DNA of 64,000 nt, taken from the IMG/VR virus record IMGVR_UViG_3300029913_000001. One strand, written 5' to 3'. Made by a program: the position numbers and the translations under genes. The notes under the pieces were generated by a model. It ran no database searches. It worked only from the letters and a program-made list of their open reading frames with translations, and had not been told where the DNA came from. Source of the DNA: a virus (taxonomy: Duplodnaviria; Caudoviricetes). This document shows positions 7,827 through 55,219 of this stretch, one piece after another; within the stretch, counting starts at the first letter, position 1; each line of letters starts with the position of its first letter.

Positions 7827-8417
7827 TTACTTTTTAATGTCATTGTATCCCGCCAAATCTCGTATTTGTTGAATGTCGAAAAAATTTTTTGTTTCCCACA
7901 ACGTTGAGGATTCGGTTAACACGAATCGAATATTTTTTGCAGTATCGTTATAATTATCGATCAGTTCATTTTCGGTGTGTAATATACGATAATTATAACC
8001 ATCATACGCGAGAATTTTATGACCCGACCTTAATAATCGTTTCCATACCAATAATCCTGAATCAGGTACCTGATCATCGCTAAATAATCGAATACCTTTT
8101 TTTGAATCCTTAAGAATAGCATCGTATAATTCATCGGCATACGGTCCAATTCCCTTATCTTTTTTGCCGAGTAAATGAACTACTAATCCTTGCGGCTTTT
8201 TTTCTAATTCTATTGCAAGCTGAATATCGCCATTGACCTCAAACCAATAATATATCATTGAATCTAGATCAATTTTTCTAAGATTTCTATTAGATATCGG
8301 TTTTATACCAAGCGCGAGTAATTCATCTATATTTCTCTTCAGAAACTCGTAATAATCGGCTAAGCCGATTGGTTTCGGCGATTCAGCGATCCAAGTTTCA
8401 TAGAAGTTCGATTTCAT
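7827..8417 (-). CDS. Divergent GNAT-fold paralog family member
   Basis: YYWFE..IQLAIELEKKPQGLVVHLLGK.DKGIGPYADELYDAIL..IRLFSDDQV..SGLLVWKRL. Confidence 0.7.
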   Translation of the reverse strand: MKSNFYETWIAESPKPIGLADYYEFLKRNIDELLALGIKPISNRNLRKIDLDSMIYYWFEVNGDIQLAIELEKKPQGLVVHLLGKKDKGIGPYADELYDAILKDSKKGIRLFSDDQVPDSGLLVWKRLLRSGHKILAYDGYNYRILHTENELIDNYNDTAKNIRFVLTESSTLWETKNFFDIQQIRDLAGYNDIKK

Positions 8418-8643
8418 ATTAGATGAATTCCTTCGACAATATCTTGTTTTAATTTCTCACGTCGTTTACGTTTTTCTTTAAAATATTTTTTGAAGTGGCA
8501 CATAGTACAGCCACAATTCATATTCCATTTCGAATACTTACCCCATTCGGGTAATAATTCTATGTTCCACCAGTGTGGACGCCAAATATTTTTATACCTT
8601 TCGATCGGAAAACCAGGGCGTTCAGGCCCTGGATTAGATCGAG

Positions 8644-8850
8644 TTAATTCTTAGGCATAGTTTCTTCCTTATCCGCGAAATACCTTTTAATTGCTGCTGA
8701 ATATTTTTGGTTTGCGATTGCTTGCTGCATTCCTAAACCGCCGAGCATTATAGATTTCTTAATTCCGTTAAGTGGATCATCTTCGGCTAGCACACAATCA
8801 TTTTCTTGTGGATGATCGAAATTAGCGGTCGTTATGTGATATTGTTTCAT
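8644..8850 (-). CDS. Hypothetical protein
   Basis: True start is probably MKQYHITT; the longer ORF call runs through tRNA-His. Confidence 0.5.
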   Translation of the reverse strand: MKQYHITTANFDHPQENDCVLAEDDPLNGIKKSIMLGGLGMQQAIANQKYSAAIKRYFADKEETMPKN

Positions 8851-8860
8851 ATTACCTACT

Positions 8861-8949
8861 TGGGGTGGCCGACGGAAGTCGAATCCGCGATGTTCTTTTG
8901 AACCCAGGGTCACAACCTGGCGCAACAAACCGACAGTTGCCTCAGCCAC
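8861..8949 (-). tRNA. tRNA-His(GUG) with long variable arm
   Basis: Acceptor GTGGCTG/CGGCCAC, C73, CCA; anticodon arm CCAGG-TTGTGAC-CCTGG; variable stem GTTC-AAAA-GAAC. Confidence 0.85.
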
Positions 8950-8983
8950 ACTTGACGAGACGGAAAATCACATCTCTAAACTT

Positions 8984-9058
8984 TGGCTCCGACTAGATGA
9001 TTCGAACACCTATTGCGTGGTTCAGCGCCACGAGCCTTAACCATTAGACGAAGTCGGA
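8984..9058 (-). tRNA. tRNA-Gln(CUG), G at position 33
   Basis: TCCGACT/AGTCGGA-G-CCA; CGTGG-CGCTGAA-CCACG; TTCGAAT T-loop. Confidence 0.8.
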
Positions 9059-12709: not shown

Positions 12710-13375
12710 CTACTCCAAAGGTAAATTATTTTCTTCCCGAGCTTTACGTATTTTAAATGACGGCCAAATATTAATTTGATCATCCGTAGATTCCGATAAA
12801 ATATATCGATAATTCTGATAATTACGATCTTTGCCGAAGAATGATTTTAATTCGTCTTCCGTTTCGCATCGAGTAAAACTTGCGCCGGGTTTGGTTCGAT
12901 CATACACAGAAACTACATGGCCATCCGAAAATAATCTGTGCCAAATCTTAAAACCGGATGTACTAAGAGTTTTATCACTTACGACTAAATTTTTTGCAGA
13001 GCCGGTTAAATTTTTCAAATCTTTTAAAATGGCAATATACAGGTCACTTGCATACGGGGCACCAGACGCCTCAGGATTTTTTCCGGTCATTAACACCGCG
13101 ACATTTCTTGAGGTCTTTTCTAATGATGTTCCTACCCAGAATATTCCATTTTTTTCATACCAGTAATAGACCTCTCTATCGAAATCCATCCTGTATAAAT
13201 CGGCACCTATCTTTTTAACTGATTGCGGCCGAGCTTTTCGTAAATCATTAATATCGTTTTTAACGGTTGGCCAGGCGGCGAATTCCATCTGTTCTGGCTC
13301 TTCATAAAGCCAGGATTCATTGAAAGAGAGCCTATCGTCAATATCAGATTCAGCTAAAATATCTTGTATTTTCAT
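12710..13375 (-). CDS. Divergent GNAT-fold paralog with MKIQDILAE leader
   Basis: YYWYE..LEK..VAVLMTGKNP...APYASDLY..VVSDKTLS.SGFKIWHRL; near-identical to 14562..15242 in the C-terminal half. Confidence 0.75.
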   Translation of the reverse strand: MKIQDILAESDIDDRLSFNESWLYEEPEQMEFAAWPTVKNDINDLRKARPQSVKKIGADLYRMDFDREVYYWYEKNGIFWVGTSLEKTSRNVAVLMTGKNPEASGAPYASDLYIAILKDLKNLTGSAKNLVVSDKTLSTSGFKIWHRLFSDGHVVSVYDRTKPGASFTRCETEDELKSFFGKDRNYQNYRYILSESTDDQINIWPSFKIRKAREENNLPLE

Positions 13376-13432
13376 CTTTCCGACCACTAATCCAATTTTT
13401 ATCTTCATTAATTTTCATATTTTTTCTTAAAT

Positions 13433-13508
13433 TGGTGCTCCCCACGGGATTTGAACCCGTATACTCGGTTTAGAAGACCGAGGCCCTATCCGGTTGGACG
13501 AAAGGAGC
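13433..13508 (-). tRNA. tRNA-Arg(UCU)
   Basis: GCTCCTT/GGGGAGC-A-CCA; CTCGG..CTTCTAA.. Confidence 0.88.
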
Positions 13509-13516
13509 AAAAACTT

Positions 13517-13590
13517 TGGAGCCGATGACAGTACTTGAAACTGCATTACCCGATTACGAAACGGGTTTTCTACCTTTGAAATACATCGGC
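13517..13590 (-). tRNA. tRNA-Thr(CGU), copy 1
   Basis: GCCGATG/CATCGGC-T-CCA; TTCGTAA loop. Confidence 0.85.
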
Positions 13591-13598
13591 AAAAACTA

Positions 13599-14254: not shown

Positions 14255-14470
14255 TCAATCTTCTGTTCCCAATGGTGATTTCTCTCAAAATTTTCGTATT
14301 CCGAAATTACTAATCACTTCGACTAGCATAAAATTTGACTCACACAGAACATACTGATAATCTTAATATTTATGATCGGCGTGAAAATATTTCTTCATAT
14401 CATTTAGTGTTGGAAATTTAGCGAACGATGAACCAGGAGCGGTTTTATCATTTAACCCAACTTTATGACC
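14255..14470 (-). pseudogene. Truncated C-terminal fragment of a GNAT-like paralog
   Basis: Translates GHKVGLNDKTAPGSSFAKFPTLNDMKKYFHADHKY*DYQYVLCES...FGIRKF*EK, matching the C-terminus of 15256..15903; two in-frame stops. Confidence 0.8.
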
Positions 14471-14481
14471 GGATATATAAT

Positions 14482-14557
14482 TGGTAATCCCGAGCAAATT
14501 TGAATCGTTATTTCTAGCTTAGGAGGCAAGTGCCCTATCCAGTTGGACGACGGGAGC
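14482..14557 (-). tRNA. Chimeric tRNA-Arg(CCU)/(ACG)
   Basis: 5' part identical to 12253..12328; 3' end (TTTGCTCGGGATTACCA) and 3' flank identical to 16325..16400; acceptor mismatch C2:U71. Confidence 0.8.
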
Positions 14558-14561: not shown

Positions 14562-15242
14562 TTAATCTAATGGTAAATTATTTTCTTCTCTAGCTTTACG
14601 AATTTTAAATGATGGCCAAATATTTATCTGGTCGTCCGGCGTCTCTGATAAAATATATCGATAGTTTTGATAATTTCGATCCTTACCGAAAAAAGATTTT
14701 AATTCATTTTCTGTTTCACACCGAGTAAAACTTTCTCCAGGTTTTGTTCTATCATATACCGAAACAACATGTCCATCGGAAAATAATCTATGCCATATCT
14801 TAAAACCGGATGCACTCAATGTTTTATCACTTACTACCAAATTCTTTGGCGATCCAGATAAATTTTTTAAATCGTTTATGATTGCAAGATACAAATCGCT
14901 GGCATATGGACTTCCGGACGCATCGGGATTTTTTCCCGTCATTAAAACAGCAACATTTCTAGGTTTCTTTTCTAAAATCGATCCAATCCAAAGTATTCCA
15001 TCTTTTTCATACCAATAATATACATCATTTTCAAAATCCATTTTATACAAATTGTTATTGATTTTTTGCACGGCATTTGGCCGGGCTTTTTTAAGATCAT
15101 TAATATCGTTTTTAACCGCCGGCCACGCTGCAAATTCCATCTGTCCTGGCTCTATGAAGAGCCAGGATTCGTTGAAGTCAATTCTTCCGTCAATTCCATC
15201 GCCCCAATTTTTATCTTCATTTATTAATTCATTGACCTTCAT
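14562..15242 (-). CDS. Divergent GNAT-fold paralog with MKVNELINE leader
   Basis: Same motifs as 12710..13375. Confidence 0.75.
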   Translation of the reverse strand: MKVNELINEDKNWGDGIDGRIDFNESWLFIEPGQMEFAAWPAVKNDINDLKKARPNAVQKINNNLYKMDFENDVYYWYEKDGILWIGSILEKKPRNVAVLMTGKNPDASGSPYASDLYLAIINDLKNLSGSPKNLVVSDKTLSASGFKIWHRLFSDGHVVSVYDRTKPGESFTRCETENELKSFFGKDRNYQNYRYILSETPDDQINIWPSFKIRKAREENNLPLD

Positions 15243-15255: not shown

Positions 15256-15903
15256 CTAATCTAATGGTAAATTATTTTCCTCTCTCACTTTCCGTAGGCT
15301 AAAATATGAAAATGCTTCAGCAAAATTCTTAGCTGATTCAGATAACACATATTGATAATCTTGATAATTTTTACCAACACCAAAATATTTTTTCATTTCG
15401 TCGAATGATTTAAAATGTTTAAATGTCTGCCCCGGATTATTTTTATCGTAAAGACTAATTTTATGGCCCGTATCAAATAATTTTTCCCAAATTTTAAAAC
15501 CGTCTTCACTTAATGTTTTATCGCTTCTTAAACAAATATTATGCATACAGTCTTTTAGAATAGATAGATATAAATCACTTGAAAACGGTGGGACCCCGAA
15601 TAAATTAGGATCTTTTCCAACCATTCTAACAATATAGGCATACTTTTGTTTTTCTAGTGTAACCGCTAATACAATTTTATCATTCTTTTCTACCCAATAG
15701 TAAATGTTATTGGGTAATTCTAACTTTTTTAAATCCATATTCAATACAATAACATTTTCTGGATAAATTTTTATTATTTCCAACACAATATTTTTAATAC
15801 CGGGCCATGAATTAAACTGCATTTTTTCGGGAGACTCGTATAAAAATGCCCTATTAAAACTCGTTCTATCTGATTCTTCATTGCATATATCATTAATTTT
15901 CAT
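15256..15903 (-). CDS. Divergent GNAT-fold paralog with MKINDICNE leader
   Basis: YYWVE..LEK..IVRMVGKDP...PPFSSDLY..LRSDKTLSEDGFKIWEKL. Confidence 0.75.
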   Translation of the reverse strand: MKINDICNEESDRTSFNRAFLYESPEKMQFNSWPGIKNIVLEIIKIYPENVIVLNMDLKKLELPNNIYYWVEKNDKIVLAVTLEKQKYAYIVRMVGKDPNLFGVPPFSSDLYLSILKDCMHNICLRSDKTLSEDGFKIWEKLFDTGHKISLYDKNNPGQTFKHFKSFDEMKKYFGVGKNYQDYQYVLSESAKNFAEAFSYFSLRKVREENNLPLD

Positions 15904-15917
15904 ATTTTTCCTTAAAT

Positions 15918-15993
15918 TGATGCTCACTGCGGGATATGACCACGCATACTTGGTTTCGAAAATTGAGGCCCTATCCAGTTGGACAAACTGAGC
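15918..15993 (-). pseudogene. Degenerate tRNA-Arg(UCG)
   Basis: Aligns with 13433..13508; decayed T-loop (GGTCATAT) and anticodon stem; TCA in place of CCA. Confidence 0.65.
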
Positions 15994-16001
15994 AAAAACT
16001 T

Positions 16002-16075
16002 TGGAGCCGATGGCAGAAATTGAATCCGCATCTCCCGATTACGAAACGGGCACTCTACCATTGAGATACATCGGC
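16002..16075 (-). tRNA. tRNA-Thr(CGU), copy 2
   Basis: GCCGATG/CATCGGC-T-CCA; TTCGTAA loop. Confidence 0.88.
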
Positions 16076-16083
16076 ATACTTAT

Positions 16084-18224: not shown

Positions 18225-18842
18225 CTACCACAGATCTTTCGAATTTAAAAAAGTGAACGCAGGTTTAATAATTGAAGGTGAATTCCACTTTTTAGTATTT
18301 TCTGAAATTTTTTGTAATCGATCCGCCGCACAATTATTTTCAATTAAAATTGCGGTTTTTGCATTATGCAACGTATTTGCACGAAGACTTATTTCGGCGT
18401 CCAAATGTTCTTTGGATAAATCGGAGAAATTAATTGGGTTGCCATTTTGATCTTTAAAAATTAACCCTCGACCACCGTTCGTTAATAACTTTCCTAGCCA
18501 TTTTAATCCGTCAGGCGTTAATTCCTCGGTATGTTGTATGATTAATTTAATTTTATGTGCGGTTAATGAAAATATAATTATAGAAATGAGGCCTTTAATT
18601 TGTGCGATATTTTCAATTCTTACCAATGGATAATAATCATCGATTGGTGAATCTAAAATAGTTACATATGCCTGCACCTCTTTATTTTCATCACAGATTA
18701 GATAAAAAATTTCATTACCGAATCGAAGCTGTAAAATATTTTTTCCATCTATAGAATCAAAAGGTATTGCTGCGGATATATCAACCGTATTCCAACTAAT
18801 TGACGGAATTGCATCTGCATATAAAATTTCATTTATTTTCAT
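18225..18842 (-). CDS. Distant GNAT-like paralog (subfamily 2) with MKINE leader
   Basis: VRIENIAQIKGLISIIIFSL..KLII.HTEELTPDGLKWL; paralog at 31839..32393. Confidence 0.6.
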   Translation of the reverse strand: MKINEILYADAIPSISWNTVDISAAIPFDSIDGKNILQLRFGNEIFYLICDENKEVQAYVTILDSPIDDYYPLVRIENIAQIKGLISIIIFSLTAHKIKLIIQHTEELTPDGLKWLGKLLTNGGRGLIFKDQNGNPINFSDLSKEHLDAEISLRANTLHNAKTAILIENNCAADRLQKISENTKKWNSPSIIKPAFTFLNSKDLW

Positions 18843-18845
18843 ACT

Positions 18846-19148
18846 CTATAGATATGTCTTTTCGTCTACTACGGTTAATACTCGTATCGATTCAATAGTA
18901 TGGACGCCGTTGCTGTACGGACAGTATGAATTAAAATTCTCGATTTGATTTTCTGTTAGAATGTCTTCATATGTTTCCCGCACAGTAGAATCTGACGATT
19001 GCCCGTGAGGCCAATCACCATCCTTATCTTTGATAGCCTTAAAAATCGGCTTTAATTTTTCCAGCACATCGGTAGTGATCTCTTTAATCGACATTATATA
19101 ATCGGCATCATTTGTGTCTGCCTTAATTACCAACAGTAGTTTTTCCAA
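18846..19148 (-). CDS. Hypothetical protein
   Basis: 100 aa ORF in operon context. Confidence 0.6.
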   Translation of the reverse strand: MEKLLLVIKADTNDADYIMSIKEITTDVLEKLKPIFKAIKDKDGDWPHGQSSDSTVRETYEDILTENQIENFNSYCPYSNGVHTIESIRVLTVVDEKTYL

Positions 19149-19159
19149 AAACCCTTTCC

Positions 19160-19351
19160 TTATTTTGCTAATCTTGCAAGTACCGCACGATCTATAATCT
19201 TAGCTGCATTAGCCCAGGCAGTTTCTTCTCGATAACAAAAGCTGCTAATTTTTCGATAGCCATCCTGTATGTAACATCTACCATCTGCTCTAATCACTCG
19301 AGCCGTAGGATAAATCGACTTTACTTTTTTAATAGCTTCTTCTAGTATCAT
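19160..19351 (-). CDS. 'YPxA...AW' family protein
   Basis: VKSIYPTA ... TAWANAAKIIDRAVLARLAK. Confidence 0.7.
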   Translation of the reverse strand: MILEEAIKKVKSIYPTARVIRADGRCYIQDGYRKISSFCYREETAWANAAKIIDRAVLARLAK

Positions 19352-19356
19352 AATTT

Positions 19357-19431
19357 TGGTAGGGAATCGGAAAGTTGAATTCCGGTCTCATGATTGAGAA
19401 TCATGCATCCTAACCACTGGACGAATTCCCC
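19357..19431 (-). tRNA. tRNA-Glu(CUC)
   Basis: GGGGAAT/ATTCCCT; CATGA-TTCTCAA-TCATG; CCA. Confidence 0.88.
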
Positions 19432-19438
19432 ATAATTT

Positions 19439-19513
19439 TGGTAGGGCGTATCGAATTCGAATCGATGCTCCGAGATTGAAGGTCTCGTAACCTAACCGCT
19501 AGTTGAACGCCCC
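19439..19513 (-). tRNA. tRNA-Glu(UUC), C at position 33
   Basis: GGGGCGT/ACGCCCT; CGAGA-CCTTCAA-TCTCG; CCA. Confidence 0.88.
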
Positions 19514-19520
19514 ATAATTT

Positions 19521-19721
19521 CTAATACTTTCCGAACCCAATATTAAATAGATCGTCGATGGATTTCAAATGAGTATGTTTCAAAAAGTATTTATTCTTAC
19601 ATTCATCAGAACAAAACGAATAAAATCCAGGAACTGGGCCATAACATTTGTGACACATAGTTGTGGGCTTTTCGGTTCCATTAATAGGAGCAACTTTCCC
19701 GTTTAGACAATCTGCCATCAA
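19521..19721 (-). CDS. Small zinc-finger-like protein
   Basis: CHKC...FCSDEC. Confidence 0.45.
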   Translation of the reverse strand: MMADCLNGKVAPINGTEKPTTMCHKCYGPVPGFYSFCSDECKNKYFLKHTHLKSIDDLFNIGFGKY

Positions 19722-20089
19722 AAAGCCCTCCCATAATGATGTCGTATTACCTGTTCCATTCTAGCCTTACCAACGGGATTCATACTATGCACTCGAACAC
19801 CCTTGACCGGCCAAATATTTTTTTCTTCCATATAACAAATAATGTCATACCCGGACTTTACATGTGGACAACGATTAAAAAATGTTGTTTCAGCCGTTTT
19901 CATATCACCGATATGATAATTTGAATTTGTGCATTCTAGGCAAGCGCCGATATCGTGATCGAGACTTGCAAATATGACTTCGCCCGTTTCTAACGCCGCG
20001 ATTGCTTCCTCATAGCTCTTGGCCCAATCCCATCCGATGCATCCGAATTTTGCTGGATCGCGTACATCATCTAACCAAAGATATATCAT
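19718..20089 (-). CDS. Cyclic-phosphate-processing receiver domain protein (cREC-like)
   Basis: LWLDDVRDP, SLDHDIG, GYD, VHSMNPVG. Confidence 0.8.
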   Translation of the reverse strand: MIYLWLDDVRDPAKFGCIGWDWAKSYEEAIAALETGEVIFASLDHDIGACLECTNSNYHIGDMKTAETTFFNRCPHVKSGYDIICYMEEKNIWPVKGVRVHSMNPVGKARMEQVIRHHYGRAF

Positions 20090-20090
20090 T

Positions 20091-20321
20091 TTATTGTCCC
20101 AAAATATAGATTAATTTTTCATCTTTTGGAAGAACACGAATTATTTCACTTTCTATTATAATTCCCCCGTTATCGATGATGTATGCAGGCCCATTTCCAA
20201 GACTAGCTCTTCCTATCAGTATAGTTCGGTTAATCGGATACCCATTAGCCGAATATTCAACTAAATCATAAATATCGTACTTATAATCAAAATCAAAATT
20301 TCCTAAAACAGATTGTCGCAT
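20091..20321 (-). CDS. Small beta-barrel-like protein with conserved C-terminal helix
   Basis: Ends ESEIIRVLPKDEKLIYILGQ. Confidence 0.65.
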   Translation of the reverse strand: MRQSVLGNFDFDYKYDIYDLVEYSANGYPINRTILIGRASLGNGPAYIIDNGGIIIESEIIRVLPKDEKLIYILGQ

Positions 20322-20334
20322 CGCATATCCAATC

Positions 20335-20544
20335 TCATTGTCCCAAAATATAGATTAATTTTTCATCTTCTGTCAAATACCGAATTATTTCACTTTGCAG
20401 TACAACTGTTTGATGGTCAGTCCAATATGCCGATCTACTTAGATAGTATGTAGGTATCGTTAATTTAACAATATCCGACCAATCCCCATCTACATGACAT
20501 TTGACGTAATCGCCGACATGATACTTGAATATTTCATCGCTCAT
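20335..20544 (-). CDS. Small beta-barrel-like protein with conserved C-terminal helix
   Basis: FKYHVGDYV ... QSEIIRYLTEDEKLIYILGQ. Confidence 0.65.
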   Translation of the reverse strand: MSDEIFKYHVGDYVKCHVDGDWSDIVKLTIPTYYLSRSAYWTDHQTVVLQSEIIRYLTEDEKLIYILGQ

Positions 20545-20624
20545 GAAAATTATACCTGTTTCGTATATTATCCCTTGTTGAAACTATAGGGCGTCCAGAG
20601 AATTGAATATTTAATTCTAAAACT

Positions 20625-20701
20625 TGGTCGGAATGGTGGAATTCGAATCCACGTCGTCCTGTTCCCGAAACAGGTGCCTCAAACCACTAGGCTACATTCC
20701 G
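20625..20701 (-). tRNA. tRNA-Pro(CGG)
   Basis: CGGAATG/CATTCCG-A-CCA; TTCGGGA loop. Confidence 0.92.
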
Positions 20702-20776
20702 AAATAGCAAACTACTCGGGGTCGAATTTGGTTGGTTTTCCTTCCTTCGACAGTTTGCTGGGTAAACTTATTTTAT

Positions 20777-20852
20777 TGGCTACCAGAGAGGAACTCGAAT
20801 CCCCATCACCAGGATCAAAACCTAGGGTCCTAACCAATTGAACGATCTGGCA
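20777..20852 (-). tRNA. tRNA-Gln(UUG)
   Basis: TGCCAGA/TCTGGTA-G-CCA; TTTTGAT loop. Confidence 0.88.
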
Positions 20853-21392
20853 TCAAAATTTGTAATTCTTATAAATCTTCCAAAAATCAGCTCGATTTTC
20901 AGCAGGAATAACTTTTAATCCCAGTGCCGAAAAAACATCCTCTTCTGTTTCACTTGCTATAATATGGCCATCTTTGAAAAGACCATATTGATTCAACTTA
21001 TCGAAACCTTTATTCTTGCAATATGTTCGCATTGCAATATTGAACTGAGCATTGCCGGTAGCGTGAAGGCGCGCGGATCCAAAACTTTCCTTTGGCACGG
21101 TAATGAACTCAACTTGAATTTCCTTACCATAACACAATACCTTAAGGCTGAGTAAAGAACCGCCAGACCGATGTACTGCGCTAGGAAAAACGTCACCTAC
21201 GACATCGAGTAATTTGCTAATAGCGCAATCAGTTATTACAAAATCTAAATCTCCGATTTCAGTTTTTCCGCGCCGCCAAGAACCACAGATTTCGAAATTA
21301 ATATTTCGATCGGTTAACACATCTAGATAGGCTGAAATAATGCCATAGGCCTGAGATCGTGTAATTTTGTTTTCAACCGCAGTGCTAGACAT
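20853..21392 (-). CDS. Minimal family-X DNA polymerase (palm and thumb only)
   Basis: CGSWRRGKTEIGDLDFVIT; HATGNAQFNIAMR..KGF.KLNQYGLF; EEDVFSALGL..IPAENR. Confidence 0.88.
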   Translation of the reverse strand: MSSTAVENKITRSQAYGIISAYLDVLTDRNINFEICGSWRRGKTEIGDLDFVITDCAISKLLDVVGDVFPSAVHRSGGSLLSLKVLCYGKEIQVEFITVPKESFGSARLHATGNAQFNIAMRTYCKNKGFDKLNQYGLFKDGHIIASETEEDVFSALGLKVIPAENRADFWKIYKNYKF

Positions 21393-21430
21393 ATATCCAA
21401 TTTCGCTCTACTGAATTTAACAACAAATAT

Positions 21431-21459
21431 AGTATAGCAAAATTGGATATGAATGTCAA
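21431..21459 (-). promoter_or_regulatory. Sigma70-like promoter
   Basis: TTGACA-17-TATACT upstream of the PolX gene. Confidence 0.7.
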
Positions 21460-21495
21460 GAGAAATTAAACTCTTTGTTTTTAATAATCTAAAAA

Positions 21496-21576
21496 TGGCG
21501 GGACTGATGGGATTCGAACCCACGTTAAATAACTTAATCGACAATTAAGCGCCTTAAACCACTTGGCTACAGTCCC
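21496..21576 (-). tRNA. tRNA-Asp(GUC)
   Basis: GGGACTG/CAGTCCC-G-CCA; CTTAA-TTGTCGA-TTAAG. Confidence 0.88.
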
Positions 21577-21584
21577 ATTAAAAA

Positions 21585-21899
21585 TTATCGTCTGCCTCTT
21601 TTAATGCTGCGGGTAAAGCCATATCCACGTAACGATCTCGGTTTGGGACCGTAAGGATGCGGGCCACGCCACGCTCGCCATGGGCCAATTCCAATAAATA
21701 TTCCGCGTACAAACCACGCCGAATCGTAATATCCATATGGAGCGCAATCATACGGAGCATATGAATAATATCCCCATAGACAAACCGGTTCTTCTACGAC
21801 AGCAGGCTGTGGCTGTTGAACAATAACCTGTACTCCGGCCTGCCCCTCCGCCACTAAACTGCATAATATTAATGCTACTGCGAAAATTAAATTTTTCAT
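21585..21899 (-). CDS. Small secreted Pro/Tyr/Gly-rich protein (resembles an Acidobacteria family)
   Basis: Signal peptide MKNLIFAVALILCSLVAEG; PVCLWGYYSYAPYDCAPYGYY..WF..GIFIGIGPW. Confidence 0.7.
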   Translation of the reverse strand: MKNLIFAVALILCSLVAEGQAGVQVIVQQPQPAVVEEPVCLWGYYSYAPYDCAPYGYYDSAWFVRGIFIGIGPWRAWRGPHPYGPKPRSLRGYGFTRSIKRGRR

Positions 21900-22098
21900 T
21901 GCGTCCTTATTTATGTCGATTATTCTGAGGATGGGATCAAACCATCTCCGCCGGACTCCGCGCCCGGTGTTCAAACACTTTATTGGTTTCGAAAATCATA
22001 AGTGTCGCGACACTTTGATTATATCCTGCCAATTGGTCCTGGGATCTGTAACCGCGCAGCTACTCTTCACCCAATCTTTTAAACTACTCAGAAACTTT

Positions 22099-22620
22099 TT
22101 ATTTTTCTACTTGCTCCGCCAAGTTTTCTAATTCTTGTGCAATTGTCTGTTCGATAAATTTATTTAGAGTAATATCTTGTTCGTGAGCCATTAGCATAAT
22201 TGTATGTAATGTTTCTTTATCGAATTCTAAAGGAATTTCAACTCTTTCATCATAAGAAGTATGATTAACAATTGCCGTCAATTTGTCAAGAAAATCTGCG
22301 GTGGTTTCTAGTTCCGTAAAGTTTACGCCGTCGTATGCTTCATGACTATCGACGCCATACGCTTCATTTTCTTTTAAAAATTCGTCCAAATATTCAGGAT
22401 TAGACAATCGGTACGCATGACCAGTTGAATAATCAAAAACCTCCGCGGAAAAAACAACCTGGGTTACATTATCAAAAATAATTGATGCCTGCACACCATC
22501 GACTTCACCGTCCCAGTAATCTAATAAATAAGCGTTCTCACCGTAACAGCTCCAACCGTATTTTTCTCCGCTTGTAATCTGGTACTTAATTCCAACTAAC
22601 CATTCACTTAGAGTAATCAT
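22099..22620 (-). CDS. Hypothetical phage protein
   Basis: 173 aa; ends with an LMAHEQDITLNKFIE ribbon-helix-like motif. Confidence 0.7.
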   Translation of the reverse strand: MITLSEWLVGIKYQITSGEKYGWSCYGENAYLLDYWDGEVDGVQASIIFDNVTQVVFSAEVFDYSTGHAYRLSNPEYLDEFLKENEAYGVDSHEAYDGVNFTELETTADFLDKLTAIVNHTSYDERVEIPLEFDKETLHTIMLMAHEQDITLNKFIEQTIAQELENLAEQVEK

Positions 22621-22741
22621 TATTTTTCCTTTTAATGTGGGTTATCCTACATATAATTCGGTAGTACCCTGTATTCCTAGATGCTTGTGATGCAAGGATT
22701 TCGAAAATGCCTTTCATCACTCTTTTATTATAGCAACTATA

Positions 22742-23347
22742 TTATTGCCTGTCAAGAGATAAGTTATTAACGATATCGGAAAATTCTTGGAAGGAGTAAA
22801 CTCGAGTATACGGAACCTTAATCTTTTCATCGGCATCTTGATTCCATTCTCTATCGCGTAGAAATAAAACTGTATCCGTACTTTTTTCTGAAACCTCGAT
22901 CAAATTTTCTGGCCTATCATCAATTATTGCATCCAATCGTAATGCTCTTGCAATTTCGCCTTTTTGTTTTTCAACCAATACCGTGGGATATTTGATTCCG
23001 CAACACGATAACCATTTTGCGGTCTGAATTTCTATTGGGTCTCCCTCGGTTATTACCCGTGTAGTAATGAAATATAATCGATATTTCTTTGAAAATGCAG
23101 TCATATCAAAATTTAAGATATCCGAAAACGGCATATTATGTAAATAAAAATTTTTGGTGTTTGAAATCACATCCCATGCCTGCTTATGAATTTCCGGAGT
23201 TAAATTCCAATTTGATTGAAACCAATCTTTAACTTCGGCGGGCAATACCTTTCCAGTTAATTGTTCGCAAATCGTATGATAAGGTGTGGTGAAATCCGAT
23301 AATACTCCATCAATATCAATGCCTAATCGTAATCTAGTATCTTTCAT
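22742..23347 (-). CDS. HAD-family 5'(3')-deoxyribonucleotidase-like protein
   Basis: GIDIDGVLSDF, YFITTR, IIDDRPEN, RD.EWN. Confidence 0.85.
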   Translation of the reverse strand: MKDTRLRLGIDIDGVLSDFTTPYHTICEQLTGKVLPAEVKDWFQSNWNLTPEIHKQAWDVISNTKNFYLHNMPFSDILNFDMTAFSKKYRLYFITTRVITEGDPIEIQTAKWLSCCGIKYPTVLVEKQKGEIARALRLDAIIDDRPENLIEVSEKSTDTVLFLRDREWNQDADEKIKVPYTRVYSFQEFSDIVNNLSLDRQ

Positions 23348-23357
23348 CTAATCCTTT

Positions 23358-23434
23358 TGGTGTCGCCGATCTGATTTGAACAGATGGCATCTTCCATATG
23401 AGAGAAGCGTTCTACCGAGCTGAACTACGGCGAC
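23358..23434 (-). tRNA. tRNA-Met/Ile2(CAU)
   Basis: GTCGCCG/CGGCGAC-A-CCA; CTCATAT loop. Confidence 0.88.
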
Positions 23435-23751
23435 ACATATAATTTGTGAAGTTTAATAAGAACATCACCGTGACAGCGATGTCTAGGTCTGCAAAAGCAT
23501 CCTAAAATATCAGAATCTTTTAAACATGGTATTAATTCGAGTATCTGTATTCTTCTGATTTGTTCAACATGTGACCATTTTGGATTCCCCAATAACCATT
23601 CTTCATAGGCATCGACAGATTCATCAATGGATCCTACTTGTACAGACGCCTTTGTATTTTTAATCGGAAGATGGGTGAATGGATTGCCGTAAATGCTACC
23701 ACGCCCAATATAAATTGTGAATGGCTCGAATCTTTTATCTACAACTTGCAT
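23425..23751 (-). CDS. DUF4326-like protein
   Basis: IYIGRGSIYGNPF ... LGCFCRP..CHGDVL. Confidence 0.85.
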   Translation of the reverse strand: MQVVDKRFEPFTIYIGRGSIYGNPFTHLPIKNTKASVQVGSIDESVDAYEEWLLGNPKWSHVEQIRRIQILELIPCLKDSDILGCFCRPRHRCHGDVLIKLHKLYVSP

Positions 23752-23769
23752 AACTATCCCTAGTTAATT

Positions 23770-23840
23770 TGGTTGCGGGGCTGGGAATTGAACCCAGAAG
23801 GCCGAGTTTATGAGGCTGGCCGGCAACCTCGCTCCCCGCA
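23770..23840 (-). tRNA. tRNA-Met(CAU), atypical or degenerate (reduced D-arm)
   Basis: TGCGGGG/CCCCGCA-A-CCA; CTCATAA loop; weak anticodon stem. Confidence 0.6.
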
Positions 23841-24070
23841 GTGGTATTTATAATTATCTGGAACGCTATAATAAACTCTAATCACGGTCCTTCGGCAATC
23901 AGTTAGCTAATGAACGACGCGTGCATATTGATAATTCTATGAGATCGATTAATCGCTATAAACTAGGCAGCTTTAGGAAAATAATTAAACGTAAAACATG
24001 GGTAATAATCGTCATAATTATCGGTACCTAGTGTTAGCCAAACATGCCCATCCGAAACGTCAACTAAATT

Positions 24071-24289
24071 TTATCCAGAGAAATCGTAATTATCTTCGAT
24101 TTTAACTCTAGCAAAAGGAATCGCATAAAAGATAAGGCCCACAGGATCTTCAACAATTGCGACATCGTGCATCATACTACGATATCCATCTGATTCATCT
24201 TCAACAGCTTCGAACACCGTCCCGTTTAATTTAAATCTATTGCAGTCAACGCCATAAAAATCTGCTTCTTGTCCAACTTCAAATTTCAT
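24071..24289 (-). CDS. Hypothetical protein
   Basis: 72 aa; VEDESDGYRSM motif. Confidence 0.55.
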   Translation of the reverse strand: MKFEVGQEADFYGVDCNRFKLNGTVFEAVEDESDGYRSMMHDVAIVEDPVGLIFYAIPFARVKIEDNYDFSG

Positions 24290-24363
24290 AATTACTAGAC
24301 CTCTTCAATGCGATCGTTTTAAAGTATGAGAGCATGACTACATTAGCCGTACTCTACGAATTA

Positions 24364-24449
24364 TGGCGGATGGTTGAGAAATCGAATCCCCTTCCTTTCG
24401 GAAGCCTCCTGCTTTCAAAACAGGCTGAACACCTTGTTCGGAACCATCC
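24364..24449 (-). tRNA. tRNA-Ser(UGA)
   Basis: GGATGGT/ACCATCC-G-CCA; TTTGAAA loop; long variable arm. Confidence 0.88.
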
Positions 24450-24452
24450 TTC

Positions 24453-24540
24453 TGGCGGCTAGCAGACCACTCGAAGGCCAATCCTTGTGAGATCGCAGTG
24501 CTTTCCAAGCACGCTCGGAATCCTATCCAATTTACTAGCC
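24453..24540 (-). tRNA. tRNA-Ser(GGA)
   Basis: GGCTAG/CTAGCC-G-CCA; TTGGAAA loop; long variable arm. Confidence 0.75.
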
Positions 24541-24770
24541 CCTAGTTAAACCCACAGGTAATCTAGGCAAAATTCAACAGCAAACTTATTTTTCAATCTT
24601 CATCAACTGATGCTTCTTTGTATCACAATCACCATTACGATGCATTTCTTCAAATTGTTTTCGATTCTTTGCCCACCATTGTTTCCAATCTGAAGTTCTT
24701 TTATTGTTGAGCAAGGGGAGTAGATGCTTACAATTATTGCACCAAAATTTCATATGACTCCTTAAAATTT

Positions 24771-25577: not shown

Positions 25578-25588
25578 TGAATCCTTTC

Positions 25589-51151: not shown

Positions 51152-52741
51152 TTAAGAACACTTACTTGATCCGCAACTCGCGCAATGATAGCATCCGGAT
51201 TCATATATTAACTGGCCGCCGCATTGGGTACATTTTTCGCCATCAACTTTTTCTCCATCTCGAATATATCCAGCAAGTAATTTTTTAACATGAAAAAGAA
51301 AACTAGCAAAAGTTACACCTTCAACTTTATCGAGCTCTGCAACAACATTCTTAATTCGAACGCCATGCCGTAATAATAGTCCGATAGTTCTAGCAATTTT
51401 TACACTGTTTGAATCATTGCCGCACTTTCGTACTGTTGATTCTATATATTGTGCGGGAATACCTTTTACTCGAGCTAAATTAATTAATCGATCGACCACA
51501 TCGTTCGTAGTCACCGATTTTTCTATGGCATTAGTTTGCACAAAAATTGAAATTGGTGCCTTATTGGCATTCAACCCGATTGTACAATACCATTTTCTTG
51601 ATCCGCCGGATTCATGATCTCTAAGAACTTTCATTTCGGCCGTGGTCGTATCCGGCAATTTAACATCATCTAGAATAATTTCTTCATCAGAACTTTCATC
51701 TTTTTGATCTACAGCCGAAAGAACTGAACTCATCGTTCCTGCGCGATATGTCGTAATTCCTTTTATATATCCTGTTTCAAAAGCATCAAGATAAATATTT
51801 TGAAATTTTTCAAACATATAATCACTGGGTAAATTGACAGTTTTACTACAGGCAGAGTCCGCGCACTTGCACCAACCCTTAAGGTCAGTAATATGCTCTT
51901 CAACAGATAATTGGGTGGTGGTAGCCGCCCAATCCGCAGTTGGGTCCCACTCGCCGATCTTTGAGAGATATCGAACCCCATAATCCTGGCATAACACTTC
52001 CTTTGTTAATCCTCGATTTTTATCAATTTTATAAACGGTACCATATTTATCTACGCCTCGTAAAATTTGCTCGTCGCCTTCTTGTGCAAATTTAAACATT
52101 TCCGTTTCAAAAAATTCACCTTGACTCCAAACCGGAGTAACTAATCGGATATGATCTGGCATATGTGAAACAATAACCGTTCGAGTATATTCTGGTAGGA
52201 AAGCGGGCTCAATCCCACCCGTAACAACCTGTGCTAAACAACCACTATTTCCATTCGGTTGATTCGAAAAAAGCGCCGAATTTCGTATACCATTCTTTTT
52301 CATACGATTTCGCAAGTTAACTGGTAAATCAATATTATCCCAGAAAGGACTTAATACATGATTATCTGGTTCGCATAATGGGAACATTCCCTTTTCATCG
52401 GCGAGATTTAATGAGGCTTCAACTCCGGCGTGAGTGAAAACTGTTAATAATTCATGCTGAATTTTAAGCGCCTCTTTTGATCCATATCGAATCTTCATCA
52501 TAATAAGAGAACTACCCCAGCCCATTACGCCGCATCCTATCCGCCGTTTATTTCTCATAGTACTTACATATTCGGGTAATGGTGCATCACTATACTCATT
52601 TACATTATCTAGAAAACGAACAAGGTAGCCTACATATTTTTTAACTCTATCTAAATCAAACCCAATTCTATCTTTATTTACAAATTGGGTAAGATTCATT
52701 GTGCCTAAACAGCAAACACCCCCGGGTGCTAACATTTGCTC
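51152..52741 (-). CDS. nrdJ: Class II (B12-dependent) ribonucleotide reductase, exon 2
   Basis: EQMLAPGGVCCLGTMNL, RRIGCGVMG, SNQPNGNSG, SKTVNLP, KGITTYR; C-terminal zinc ribbon. Confidence 0.9.
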   Translation of the reverse strand, partial: EQMLAPGGVCCLGTMNLTQFVNKDRIGFDLDRVKKYVGYLVRFLDNVNEYSDAPLPEYVSTMRNKRRIGCGVMGWGSSLIMMKIRYGSKEALKIQHELLTVFTHAGVEASLNLADEKGMFPLCEPDNHVLSPFWDNIDLPVNLRNRMKKNGIRNSALFSNQPNGNSGCLAQVVTGGIEPAFLPEYTRTVIVSHMPDHIRLVTPVWSQGEFFETEMFKFAQEGDEQILRGVDKYGTVYKIDKNRGLTKEVLCQDYGVRYLSKIGEWDPTADWAATTTQLSVEEHITDLKGWCKCADSACSKTVNLPSDYMFEKFQNIYLDAFETGYIKGITTYRAGTMSSVLSAVDQKDESSDEEIILDDVKLPDTTTAEMKVLRDHESGGSRKWYCTIGLNANKAPISIFVQTNAIEKSVTTNDVVDRLINLARVKGIPAQYIESTVRKCGNDSNSVKIARTIGLLLRHGVRIKNVVAELDKVEGVTFASFLFHVKKLLAGYIRDGEKVDGEKCTQCGGQLIYESGCYHCASCGSSKCS

Positions 52742-52985
52742 CATCGGTTATTTCAACGCGCTTTATCGTTGATCTCCTCATTTCTAAGGAGTGTCGGACT
52801 ATATCTTCATACTATGTATGTCGGGCGCTCGTGGTAGGATTATTGATTTAGTTTCTCACCTACTAGTCTCTACGCTTTTCAGAATACTGTTATACTATTT
52901 CTTCTGACTTAGCTCGGTATTTCCAGTTTAAAGGATTCACCGAATTCACCCAATGATTATACTGAGGCCAGCTTTACGCAATTTG
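52742..52985 (-). ncRNA. Group I self-splicing intron (244 nt, no ORF)
   Basis: P/Q/R/S elements GGGTGAATTCGGTGAA, AATACCGAG, GTAGAGACTA and AAGATATAGTCCG; the 5' exon ends in U and the intron ends in G; splicing restores NPC-G-E-Q. Confidence 0.92.
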
Positions 52986-54005
52986 ACCACAGGGATTCGT
53001 TGTCGCAATTTTCTCTAAATAATTAAGTTGATTAAATTTATTTGAACGATCTAAAAATAAAATTCCTGGTTCGTTTCTATTATAGGTTGATTGAGTAATC
53101 AAATTCCATAACCATTCAACTTTAACCGTTTGATAAATTTTAATTGGATATCCTTTTGATACCCACGATGTTAGATCCCCAAACCATTCCTTTTTATATT
53201 GCGGATGAGTAGTTTCTGGATAAACCAAATCCCAAGTAATTGCATTAATTTCATTTTGGGGTGCCCCATCACGTTTTAATTGAGATAAATTTAATACTTT
53301 TTCCATAAATTTATCGGTGCAATTGACACTCATATTAAATTTGGATAATCTGCCGGGAGTTTGTTTTGCTGTAATAAATTCAATAATGTCCGGATTCCAA
53401 ACAGACATACACAACATCTGGGCGCCTTTTCGGATTTTACCTTTTGCTTTTTTATTTAATGATTTTTTACCAGAGCCTGAAGTAATAATTTCTGAACTGC
53501 GGTCAAAGAGCTCGAAAAATTTAACAGCCCCAGGCGTTTCCACCCCTATACCATTGATAAATGTGCCGCGTGGTCGAATAAAATCTGCGACGGCTCCTGC
53601 TCCCCCTTCAGACTTAAGAGTGAATGATTGATATTTAAGATACTCTAAAATGCCTTCTAAACTATCGGCATCATATTTAGGATTCGGGAGAACAAAGCAA
53701 TTAATTAAGGTTGTTCCCTTAAATTCTGTTCCGGCATTTGCCAAAATTCTACCACCGGGAACTACTTTGAATCCTGTAAGCATATCATAAAAATTGTATG
53801 CCCATTTAACTCGTAATTCTTCTGTTGCCTCCACGCTTGCAATTGCTTTTGCAACACGCCAAAAATTATCATTAATATCGGCGTCTTTATAATCTTTATA
53901 AGTAGCAGACCAGACCTCTTCACTAAAGCTATCTTCAAATTTCGTTGTTTGTTCTGGTCTGGGGAGATAAGAAAGTCCTTTCATTGTTTCTTGTGTTGTG
54001 TTCAA
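52986..54005 (-). CDS. nrdJ: Class II ribonucleotide reductase, exon 1
   Basis: PGGRILANAG, LINCF, LKSEGG.G, RKGAQM, FNMSV, EPGILFLD, TNPCG. Confidence 0.9.
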
Positions 54006-54044
54006 AATTAAACCTCTATTTTGTATACTGAATTTGTCTTGTAT

Positions 54045-54608
54045 TTACCGCGGATAAACTACATATTGATAACATTTTTTTTCTTTTCCATAAAAACTTA
54101 CCATTTCTTCTACCGACACTATTTCATTCATATCGGGCGAAACCGACATCTTATATCCAGCATTTAGCAATGTTTGCCATGCCGTATTATCTTCGGATAT
54201 CATGCTTTTACTACTTTTAATTGCGCAGTTATCATTGTCTAAGATAGCGACATATAAATCGGCTAATTCCCCATATGTTATAAAAGAACTAATTCTGGCA
54301 TTTATCACTTCTAGTTCAGTACCGACTTTTTCCAATTCGACTATCTGCGTCATCGTTTCATTTTGCTCTGTCCAATAATAAACGCAGGTAGATAATTCTA
54401 TTTTTCTAGTGGTATCATTAATAATAATTGGTTGTTGCCCGAATTTTAATAAATCTCGAATATTATATTGTAAGATATCGAACATTCTAAATTGCCAAAA
54501 GCTTTTACCAGGCATCTCTAAAAAACTAACTTCCATTCGATGCATATCTTCGAGACAGTATAGCTTTTCATAATTGCACATATCTATTATATCTTGTTGA
54601 CCTATCAT
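54045..54608 (-). CDS. Degenerate GNAT-like paralog
   Basis: RKIELSTCVYYW.E shared with its neighbour; LYVAILDN..IKSSKSMISE....W..L. Confidence 0.6.
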   Translation of the reverse strand: MIGQQDIIDMCNYEKLYCLEDMHRMEVSFLEMPGKSFWQFRMFDILQYNIRDLLKFGQQPIIINDTTRKIELSTCVYYWTEQNETMTQIVELEKVGTELEVINARISSFITYGELADLYVAILDNDNCAIKSSKSMISEDNTAWQTLLNAGYKMSVSPDMNEIVSVEEMVSFYGKEKKCYQYVVYPR

Positions 54609-54610
54609 GT

Positions 54611-55219
54611 TTATACTCCAGCCAATTCTCGATATCTTTGGGTATTGAAAAAGTTTCTAGTCTCGGCTAATATTTTTGTTTCCGTTAAAATATATTGATA
54701 ACGTTTATAATCGGTATTATCGTTCTCAAAATAATTATCAAAATCGTTAATTGTTAAAAATGTTTTAAAAGTTCTTCCCGGATTTAATGCGTCATAAATT
54801 GAAATCTTATGACCCATTTTAAACAACCTTTTCCAAATAGCATATCCTTCATCGGACAGGGATACGTCGCTCAAAATTCTTACACCTTTACCGCAATCTT
54901 TTAGAATAACATCGTATAAAGAGCTAGCATATGGCTTTCTTCCCCGCCAATTAGAATTTTTTCCTGTAATTCTAACTACTAATCCTTGAGGTTTCTTTTC
55001 TAATTCCGAGCCTAAAATAATTTCATTATCTATTTCATACCAGTAATAGACACAAGTAGATAATTCTATTTTTCGATAACCATTGCCCATATCAATAGAA
55101 ATCTGGCCGTTTCTTTTAAGATCAGCAATATTATATATAAACATATCATATAGTTCGGTTTTACCGATTCCTTCCGGGGATTCGGTTAACCATGTTTCGT
55201 TGAATTCTAACTGGCTCAT
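54611..55219 (-). CDS. Divergent GNAT-fold paralog
   Basis: YYWYE / ILGSELEK / LVVRITGK / NWRGRKPYASSLY / RILSD / SDEGYAIWKRL. Confidence 0.75.
   Translation of the reverse strand: MSQLEFNETWLTESPEGIGKTELYDMFIYNIADLKRNGQISIDMGNGYRKIELSTCVYYWYEIDNEIILGSELEKKPQGLVVRITGKNSNWRGRKPYASSLYDVILKDCGKGVRILSDVSLSDEGYAIWKRLFKMGHKISIYDALNPGRTFKTFLTINDFDNYFENDNTDYKRYQYILTETKILAETRNFFNTQRYRELAGV

Follow-up and report, generated by a model that had tools for sequence, protein, structure and literature searches.

A portable N-terminal leader and orphan families of predicted GNAT-fold proteins as candidate virion cargo of a T4-related giant phage

Introduction

What purpose is served by an expanded family of divergent proteins in an uncultured giant phage, and why do several of its members begin with the same few residues as proteins to which they are otherwise unrelated? 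This question is raised by a 64,000-nucleotide stretch of viral DNA (IMG/VR record IMGVR_UViG_3300029913_000001), referred to below in its entirety as the window, the source of which is an uncultured T4-related giant phage with a genome of roughly 290 kilobases (kb). In metagenomes, the phage of the window occurs in several samples and on at least 21 contigs, of which the longest measures 292,778 bp. The window has a G+C content of 38%, encodes 29 tRNA genes, and carries nearly all of its genes on the minus strand. An initial annotation, made from the sequence of the window, had described about nine divergent proteins with the fold of GCN5-related N-acetyltransferases (GNATs), several of them with leaders resembling the capsid-targeting sequences of phage T4. 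Herein we find that the leader is a real and portable signal that probably marks virion cargo, and that its bearers include members of an orphan protein family for which structural models predict a GNAT fold. Genes are named by the first coordinate of their position in the window (Table 1).

Results

A portable N-terminal leader on unrelated proteins

The leaders MKIQDILAE, MKVNELINE, MKINDICNE and MKINE had been noted initially, and all are present as described. After 12 N-termini stood out in the window and in loci around family relatives, we set the leader pattern as M[KR][ILV]x[DE][ILVFM]. This pattern starts 18 of the 440 unique open reading frames (ORFs) of the window and 16 related loci, as compared to an expectation of 1.06 when N-terminal columns were shuffled (maximum 6 in 2000 shuffles), and follows an internal methionine in 2 of 1995 cases. 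The contig IMGVR_UViG_3300028909_000017 (hereafter G003) is syntenic with window positions 2394-44761 (66-79% nucleotide identity). There, a looser pattern that allows any residue at position 2 and I, L, V, F or M at position 3 fits 20 ORFs (shuffle null 6.8, maximum 15), of which 19 satisfy the strict pattern as well. Enrichment was weak in a second contig of 51% G+C (G002), where 11 matches stand against a null of 3.7 and a null maximum of 12.

The proteins that bear this leader are mutually unrelated. They comprise both GNAT-fold families described below, an Amidoligase_2 protein, a Zeta-toxin-like kinase (PF06414, E 3e-13) located in a G003 cluster of leader genes, and seven G003 proteins that form a family matching phrog_11975/12810. 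Furthermore, codons differ at the conserved leader positions (AAA/AGA/CGC, ATT/ATA/TTA/CTT), and therefore the constraint acts on the peptide. In the second GNAT-fold family, for example, M1, E5 and I6 are invariant and the rest of the protein falls to as little as 18% identity, such that MKINEI is the best-conserved segment of the family. In the main family only three of the six intact copies (12710, 14562 and 15256) carry the leader, which is missing from 7827, 54611 and 54045. The leader is similarly scattered over the tree of the main family, in which well-supported branches force at least five gains or losses. One such event can be read at 12710, where an out-of-frame remnant is homologous to the leader of 14562 and the present leader, MKIQDILAE, sits in a 30-nucleotide insertion relative to 14562; by this sequence comparison, an old leader has died and a new one has been inserted.

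Leader-bearing genes are clustered in G003 (20081-26451 and 30014-30622), and a cluster of them is also found at another locus, L029.

Table 1. Features of the window discussed in the text, all on the minus strand. Fold assignments are predictions; E values refer to the main-family profile.
Position	Strand	Feature	Length	Leader	Support
2345-3787	-	Amidoligase_2 protein, unrelated to the GNAT-fold families	480 amino acids	MKIKELLTE (LTE-9)	
7827-8417	-	Main-family paralog; beta4-alpha3 loop KDKGIG	196 amino acids	none	profile E 2e-58
12710-13375	-	Main-family paralog	221 amino acids	MKIQDILAE (LAE-9)	profile E 4e-70
13350-13418	-	Older leader remnant, out of frame, just upstream of the 12710 start		MKINEDKNW...	
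13405-13591	-	Duplicated block, copy 1: tRNA-Thr(cgt), tRNA-Arg(tct), paralog upstream region and leader	187 nucleotides		
14288-14518	-	Pseudogene: C-terminal third of a main-family copy, 5'-truncated, two in-frame stops			profile positions 139-199
14562-15242	-	Main-family paralog	226 amino acids	MKVNELINE (VNE-5, INE-9)	profile E 3e-69
15256-15903	-	Main-family paralog	215 amino acids from ATG	MKINDICNE	profile E 3e-74
15890-16076	-	Duplicated block, copy 2: tRNA-Thr(cgt), uncalled tRNA-Arg copy, leader of 15256			
18225-18842	-	Second-family member (GNAT fold)	205 amino acids	MKINEI	profile, ESM Atlas
31839-32393	-	Second-family member (GNAT fold)	184 amino acids	MKINEI	profile, BLASTP to 18225
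54045-54608	-	Degenerate main-family paralog	187 amino acids	none	profile E 2e-31
54611-55219	-	Main-family paralog, reference	202 amino acids	none	profile E 1e-79

Leaders of the same type among virion proteins

The start M-K-[I/L/V]-x-E has the form of the (I/L)-x-E site at which the T4 prohead protease gp21 cleaves. Several leaders hold a second such site that ends at Glu-9 (LAE, INE or LTE), and both 18225 and 31839 carry INE-5. In T4 itself, cleavage at ITE-6 removes six N-terminal residues from Alt, and capsid-targeting propeptides of 10-19 residues are present on the internal proteins (PMC5694885, PMC9026906). A gene for a protease of the gp21 family (Peptidase_S77, E 1e-26) was found in two related contigs that also carry a family member, and in both it adjoins a coiled-coil scaffold-like gene.

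Homologues of one leader-bearing protein of G003 occur in Agrobacterium phage Atu_ph07, RsoM2USA and SCTP-2, where they start M[KR]WxQLTE, MTTFKEYLTE and MRISQLLKE, respectively. The capsid-targeting sequence of T4 is MKTYQEFIAE, to which the N-terminus from RsoM2USA is close. In Atu_ph07, the gp55-62 array consists of homologues of the G003 family that matches phrog_11975/12810. We scanned the Atu_ph07 genome (NC_042013.1) with the pattern M[KR][aromatic or aliphatic]x[QEDKNH][aliphatic]x[EDN], which matched gp53-63, gp381, gp408, gp482, gp487, gp548, gp561, gp672 and one unannotated ORF. The 18 annotated genes among these start M[KR][W/L/Y]x[Q/D/E]LxE and, in the published virion proteome (PMC6102473, Table S5), all 18 are among the 140 proteins identified by electrospray ionization tandem mass spectrometry, with molecular weights that agree with that table to 0.01 kDa (hypergeometric p 1.7e-13). 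The pattern had been fixed after the N-termini of gp55-62 were seen, and therefore the seven genes outside of the paralog array offer the fairer test; for these the hypergeometric p is 1.4e-5.

One of the seven is of particular relevance to the main family. The product of gp672 is 194 amino acids long, starts MRLIDLLEHTLTEMP, and has a leader of the type MRLIDLLE. It is the best match of the main-family profile in Atu_ph07 (E 0.0026, local hmmsearch --max) and can be aligned with the family over GKNP, SD..SE.G..W.RL and G..I.YY (hhalign E 7e-4, probability 26%). A genome search of Atu_ph07, RsoM2USA and SCTP-2 with the main-family profile gave no match at E<=0.01. A 194-residue Atu_ph07 protein was also a Foldseek match of the main-family model (E 1e-5); from its length it is probably gp672. 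The gp672 protein is by these alignments a probable remote homologue of the main family, and since it is in the virion table with the same type of leader, a probable remote homologue has therefore been seen in virions.

The initial annotation had proposed a T4-like capsid-targeting leader that is cleaved after Glu. The enrichment at N-termini, the (I/L)-x-E motif, the gp21-type protease of related contigs and the Atu_ph07 virion proteome all speak indirectly for this proposal, which does not extend to the half of the main-family copies that are leaderless. On the best evidence available, which includes the proteomics of the distantly related Atu_ph07, the leader probably marks virion cargo. 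In a search of the main text of the Atu_ph07 paper (PMC6102473) we found no mention of the leader, and the literature searched yielded no published link between capsid targeting and Atu_ph07-like phages.

An orphan family with a predicted acetyltransferase fold

A profile built from 132 relatives was used for a six-frame scan of the whole window. It recovered the same six intact main-family paralogs and one pseudogene that had been annotated, and no further member beyond the six intact copies and two fragments; the latter are adjacent (14366-14518 and 14288-14362, profile E 1e-6 and 5e-5) and together make up the pseudogene. With the two distant proteins 18225 and 31839, the original count of about nine is therefore exact, and in the ORF listing all coordinates were right and every gene lies on the minus strand. 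Identity to the first copy ranges from 28 to 45% among the six intact copies, with 77% identity between 12710 and 14562. The protein encoded by 54611 is also found on at least 21 metagenome contigs, and we use it as the reference for residue numbering and models of the main family. The motifs by which the set had first been recognized (YYW.E, LEK, GK, PYA..LY and SD..LS..G..W.RL) correspond to conserved columns of the 132-sequence alignment. Mean column identity in this alignment is 25%, and 12 positions are near-invariant, with conservation of at least 90%: F6, E13, P15, W60, K87, Y102, S117, D118, W129, G136, Y142 and F191.

None of the eight intact proteins of the two families matches a Pfam or PHROG family, and tblastn searches with 54611 and 18225 against 50,697 phage records (INPHARED) returned no match. 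An exhaustive hidden Markov model search showed that the main family spans at least 269 clusters at 50% identity, all of them metagenomic. As judged from sequence, the main family is an orphan, and both families are phage-specific.

The assignment to the GNAT fold comes from structural models. A first AlphaFold model of the reference protein, built on 15 sequences, reached a predicted local distance difference test score (pLDDT) of 77, and a second, built on the 132-sequence alignment, reached a pLDDT of 92.5 and a predicted template modeling score of 0.87. When the second model was compared with 48,161 PDB chains by VIA-align, all of the top 50 matches had an acetyltransferase fold, with Z scores up to 7.5, and the first model gave the same outcome, matching nearly only GNATs. 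Foldseek matches in the AFDB were almost exclusively acetyltransferases, and those among Swiss-Prot models were acetyltransferases only, plus one GNAT-fold regulator (PanD regulatory factor). Similarly, a shape search of the ESM Atlas returned a viral cluster, 48% of whose members carry PF00583, at template modeling (TM) scores of 0.61/0.66, and a minimal bacterial GNAT at a TM score of 0.79 (by hit), with 101 of its 106 residues covered. The order of secondary structure elements in the model and the positions of the motifs fit beta2-beta4, alpha3, beta5, alpha4 and beta6. As read from this order, two helices that usually follow beta1 precede it here (H3-11 and H24-36). On the strength of these models, the initial assignment of the main family to the GNAT fold is correct. 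A conserved N-terminal segment, FNE[ST]WLxExP, was considered as a disordered, cleavable targeting peptide and was dropped, as it forms a packed helix with a pLDDT of about 91 in the deep model.

The distant pair behaved as originally proposed, in that BLASTP links 18225 to 31839 (E 4e-9) and the two, together with ten relatives, make up a profile family of their own; the profile of this second family matches only those two ORFs of the window. An hhalign comparison of the main and second families gave a probability of 8% and an E value of 0.004, with 97 collinear columns spanning beta2 to beta6. Single members of the second family reached no better than E 0.13-0.16 against Pfam acetyltransferases, and 18225 falls on viral GNAT clusters carrying PF00583, as the main family does (ESM Atlas, features and structure). 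We accept that both share the GNAT fold as separate families of one fold class. Because the profile alignment between them is weak, they are kept apart and are not called proven paralogs.

In the model of the main family, K87 lies at the end of beta4, S117-D118 at the end of beta5, Y102 in alpha3 and W129 in alpha4; the canonical cleft between beta4 and beta5, in which the thioester is held in GNATs, would therefore have K87 and S117-D118 at its sides. The consensus of acetyl-CoA motif A in the main family is K87-N-P-x-x-x-G93-x-P-P-Y-A. Within the window, 7827 comes nearest to the canonical Q/R-x-x-G-x-G/A with K-D-K-G-I-G, and the second family reads Q-I-K-G-L-I. The main family also conserves a basic C-terminal helix (R194, R195 and R197). 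Five main-family copies keep all conserved polar residues and are, at about even odds, active as acyl-CoA-dependent transferases. The sixth, 54045, forms a long branch in the family tree and has lost most conserved residues in the alignment, including K87, S117-D118 and Y142-D143, along with the C-terminal helix. It is probably non-catalytic by this alignment, and it is kept in related contigs, with a near-identical orthologue (P0008) elsewhere.

Packaged effectors as the favored explanation

Our best explanation for these data, with a probability that we put at roughly 55%, is that the leader-bearing proteins are packaged GNAT-fold cargo from which the leader is cleaved, and that they act as acyl-CoA transferases on the host. 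As we infer packaging in the phage of the window, cleavage, enzymatic activity and target, the leader M-K-[IV]-x-[DE]-[IL], often followed by x-x-E, would be a T4-type capsid-targeting propeptide that takes the protein into the prohead core, where a gp21-type prohead protease would cut after the leader Glu. The mature protein would then stay in the head and be delivered into the host along with the DNA. Copies that lack a leader (7827, 54611 and 54045) would instead be made and act inside the infected cell. Within the host, the intact copies would function as acyl-CoA-dependent transferases on host macromolecules, for takeover or counter-defense, and the many diverged copies may reflect different targets.

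On a broader level, the balance is even on the proposal that T4-related giant phages load a changing enzyme-fold arsenal into the capsid by means of a portable N-terminal code. The proposed code would read M-[KR]-hydrophobic-x-[D/E/Q]-hydrophobic, usually closed by x-E, and the arsenal would include both GNAT-fold families, the amidoligase, the Zeta-type kinase and a large family with an unknown fold.

Several observations weigh against this explanation. With respect to the leader, 15256 fits the protease site loosely, with IND-5 and with CNE-9, which has Cys and not Ile or Leu at P3, and 18225 has no Glu at positions 8-10. These proteins are not basic (isoelectric points of 5.4-7.8), unlike the T4 internal proteins. 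Atu_ph07 is a distant phage, its leader is a variant and its gp672 homologue is only probable; moreover, of the annotated Atu_ph07 ORFs that fit the 6-residue pattern derived from the window, only 3 of 5 are in the virion table. An ATAAATA box, which is overrepresented before leader genes (see below), is absent before 12710, 14562 and 15256, and the window shows no enrichment of the canonical T4 late promoter (TATAAATA), with 5 occurrences as compared to 9.9 expected and none before a paralog. With respect to the fold, none of the 132 main-family relatives matches a Pfam acetyltransferase model at E<=1, and a search of PDB sequences with the main-family profile gave four weak matches only (E 0.2-0.3), to an unrelated FHA-domain protein. 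The VIA-align Z scores of 7-8 lie in a range that the tool calls common, and the fold assignment therefore rests on the uniformity of the matches and on the Atlas TM scores rather than on one strong match. Finally, with respect to catalysis, motif A is only partly kept: G93 is found in 51% of members, the loop exceeds its usual length by about four residues, and helix alpha3 begins with the acidic D100. In many GNATs, such as RimI, a Tyr in alpha4 is the general acid, and this position is an invariant Trp in the main family.

The points on catalysis bear most directly on a second explanation, which we regard as unlikely, according to which the proteins have a GNAT fold but act by binding and not by catalysis, with the leader copies still packaged. 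They might then inhibit host defenses, as T4 IPI* blocks GmrSD, or serve as regulators, as GNAT-fold PanZ does with PanD. The incomplete motif A, the Trp at the general-acid position and the lack of a GNAT signal at the sequence level would all suit such proteins, as would the appearance of PanD regulatory factor among the fold matches. Similarly, 54045 is retained in related contigs despite the loss of nearly all conserved residues, and diversified paralogs with pseudogenes are what might be expected from an arms race of binders. On the other hand, the 12 near-invariant residues are mostly polar or aromatic and have been kept at a mean column identity of 25%, and K87, S117-D118 and Y142-D143 in particular suit an active site better than a variable binding surface.

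A late-promoter core upstream of some leader genes

The late-promoter core ATAAATA occurs within 30 nucleotides upstream of 7 of 24 leader genes, as compared to 11 of 331 (twelve-fold, p 5e-5). For example, it is found 6 nucleotides upstream of the amidoligase start codon, and the TAAATA that had been pointed out just upstream of position 32393 is indeed present, 5 nucleotides before the ATG of gene 31839. No TAAATA precedes 12710, 14562, 15256 or 18225. We also observed (T)ATAAATA about 5 nucleotides upstream of an ATG and without a Shine-Dalgarno sequence at window positions 3788-3800 and 32394-32407, and likewise in G003 upstream of 20719, 25016, 26451, 94824 and 97515. As predicted from this arrangement, such leader genes would be transcribed as nearly leaderless late mRNAs.

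This arrangement suggests a further explanation, in which the N-terminal leader is not a packaging signal and has instead been selected for translation of late, nearly leaderless mRNAs, for stability or for recognition by a chaperone, and all paralogs are ordinary intracellular phage enzymes. The box at about 5 nucleotides from the ATG of several leader genes would leave almost no 5' untranslated region, and AT-rich genomes often have A-rich codons following the ATG. In addition, no such box is present at the leader genes of the main family, whose ribosome-binding sites are ordinary (for example, AAGGA ahead of the 15256 ATG), and the weak prediction of Atu_ph07 virion presence by the 6-residue pattern (3 of 5) also fits with a role other than packaging. 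However, synonymous and conservative changes (K/R and I/L/V) point to selection at the level of the peptide, and the motif is shaped like a gp21 cleavage site. Furthermore, every annotated Atu_ph07 gene with the full 8-residue leader appears in the virion table, and RsoM2USA homologues of one leader family start with a sequence close to that of T4, MTTFKEYLTE. For these reasons an origin of the leader outside of packaging is unlikely, and capsid targeting remains the favored account of it.

tRNA genes and duplicated cassettes

From the location of the paralogs in a tRNA array, the initial annotation had suggested a link to translation. The local sequence offers a different account. Two blocks of 84% identity, 13405-13591 and 15890-16076, lie upstream of 12710 and 15256, and each unites tRNA sequences with the beginning of a paralog (Table 1). 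The paralogs are found among tRNA genes because tRNA-plus-paralog cassettes were duplicated together in a plastic region, and alignment of the blocks indicates that the main family grew partly by tandem duplication of such cassettes. Outside of the window, the scan covered 12 non-redundant loci that carry a family member (the near-duplicates L006 of L005 and L009 of L008 being left out), and in 8 of these no tRNA lies within 10 kb. The suggestion of a translation link from location alone is thus not upheld.

Other remnants are visible in the same region. The segment 15918-15993 on the minus strand duplicates tRNA-Arg(tct) at 13433-13508, receives no tRNA call from ARAGORN, and is by its sequence probably a decaying tRNA copy. 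A decayed tRNA-like stretch also lies directly upstream of the pseudogene. In G003, the tandem array at 90810-93609 comprises four main-family copies that are intact and at least three that are broken, and expansion with decay therefore recurs in the lineage. Mobility of the homing-endonuclease type was considered as a source of the copies and pseudogenes, and is disfavored by the fold and by the tandem duplication of cassettes. A tRNA with an irregular anticodon loop was called by ARAGORN at 27078-27150 on the minus strand (anticodon 'tg', amino acid unknown), and a similar odd tRNA occurs in a syntenic contig (L033, 6765-6837).

An action of the family on tRNA or aminoacyl-tRNA, whether by acetylation as for AtaT and TacT or by use of aminoacyl-tRNA as a donor as for Fem and L/F-transferases, would be in keeping with the presence of five copies among the 29 tRNA genes, with the occurrence of TacT and AtaT among the fold matches (Z 6.2), and with the basic C-terminal helix, which could bind nucleic acid through R194, R195 and R197. 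Moreover, a Doc-type kinase domain (HAFTDGNKR), from a family known to target EF-Tu, is fused onto one distant member. We nevertheless consider such an action very unlikely, given that the joint duplication explains the local association, that most other loci have no tRNA nearby, that two copies adjoin ribonucleotide reductase instead, that dozens of generic GNATs rank at least as high as TacT and AtaT, and that we found no small, antitoxin-like partner ORF recurring next to the copies. Least credible of all is that the family is unrelated to GNATs and merely shares a common alpha/beta arrangement, since, for all that the best Z scores of 7.5-8.3 are described by the tool as typical of models without a true match and Foldseek TM scores against the PDB reach only 0.3-0.5, the top 50 matches of two independent models all belong to one fold class, TM scores to Pfam-positive GNAT clusters are 0.61-0.79, and the order of secondary structure and the motif positions agree with a GNAT.

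Neighboring genes

The reference gene 54611 adjoins UvdE and a split ribonucleotide reductase gene. The large subunit of this reductase (51152-54005, minus strand) is divided into ORFs of 343 and 530 amino acids with a gap of 229 nucleotides. The first ORF ends ...TNPCGQIA, a position that we take to lie within the conserved NPCGE active-site motif of ribonucleotide reductase. The sequence suggests an intron, a split intein or a two-piece enzyme. In a distant phage contig, L042, the reductase is also split, with an inserted gene of 399 amino acids. This contig (4406-5437) and P0148 each encode a Doc-type Fic domain (HAFTDGNKR) fused N-terminal to a main-family domain, and on these two independent contigs the fused member lies beside the split reductase, in the same position as 54611 and 54045.

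At the other end of the window, positions 2345-6429 on the minus strand hold a cluster composed of the leader-bearing amidoligase, an HNH endonuclease (4050-4664) and an ATP-grasp protein of the R2K clade (5656-6429). Pairs of amidoligase and ATP-grasp proteins have been proposed to make peptide tags, according to work cited in PMC7824862.

Discussion

Should the leader prove to be a packaging code, metagenome sequence alone could reveal which proteins an uncultured giant phage injects, a set that is very difficult to establish even in cultured phages. The GNAT-fold family would then represent a new class of injected host-modifying enzymes, and the leader would provide a list of candidate effectors for takeover or counter-defense, including an unannotated family of at least 269 clusters at 50% identity. 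The match between leader and virion presence for 18 of 18 Atu_ph07 genes in the published proteome can be checked at once in a cultured system.

Among known systems, one close likeness is to the internal proteins IPI-III and Alt of T4. In both cases a short N-terminal leader with a hydrophobic-x-Glu site (PMC5694885, PMC9026906) is carried by otherwise unrelated, fast-evolving proteins, and the phage lineage encodes a gp21-type protease, as seen here in related contigs. Putative cargo with an enzyme fold also has a counterpart in T4, as Alt is an ADP-ribosyltransferase. The present system differs in the sequence of its leader, MK[IV]x[DE][IL]..., in the non-basic character of its putative cargo, and in having far more leader genes, with about 20 in 125 kb of G003. 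Atu_ph07 is likewise similar, as a jumbo phage with a T4 core and with paralog arrays that have a common leader ending in L-x-E, and its gp672 combines family motifs with this type of leader. However, this relative is distant, BLAST finds nothing in it that resembles the family of the window, and gp672 is a single copy.

With regard to the predicted enzymes, LUZ19 Rac, which acetylates the alpha subunit of RNA polymerase, and AcrVA5, which acetylates Cas12a, likewise direct a phage GNAT fold against host machinery, and injected polyvalent proteins also carry GNAT domains. Rac and AcrVA5 are recognizable as GNATs by sequence, whereas the family described here is not, and to our knowledge Rac is not known to be packaged. 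AtaT and TacT resemble the family in fold, with a Z score that lies below those of about 30 generic GNATs, and differ from it in that the position of their catalytic Tyr is a Trp in the main family. Jumbo phages have been reported to encode many GNATs that are predicted to act like Rac (PMC7824862). Both the concept of capsid-targeted cargo in T4 and the use of GNATs as phage effectors were already known (PMC7824862). What appears to be new is an orphan GNAT-fold family, as predicted from models, together with a leader code that apparently scales to dozens of cargo genes.

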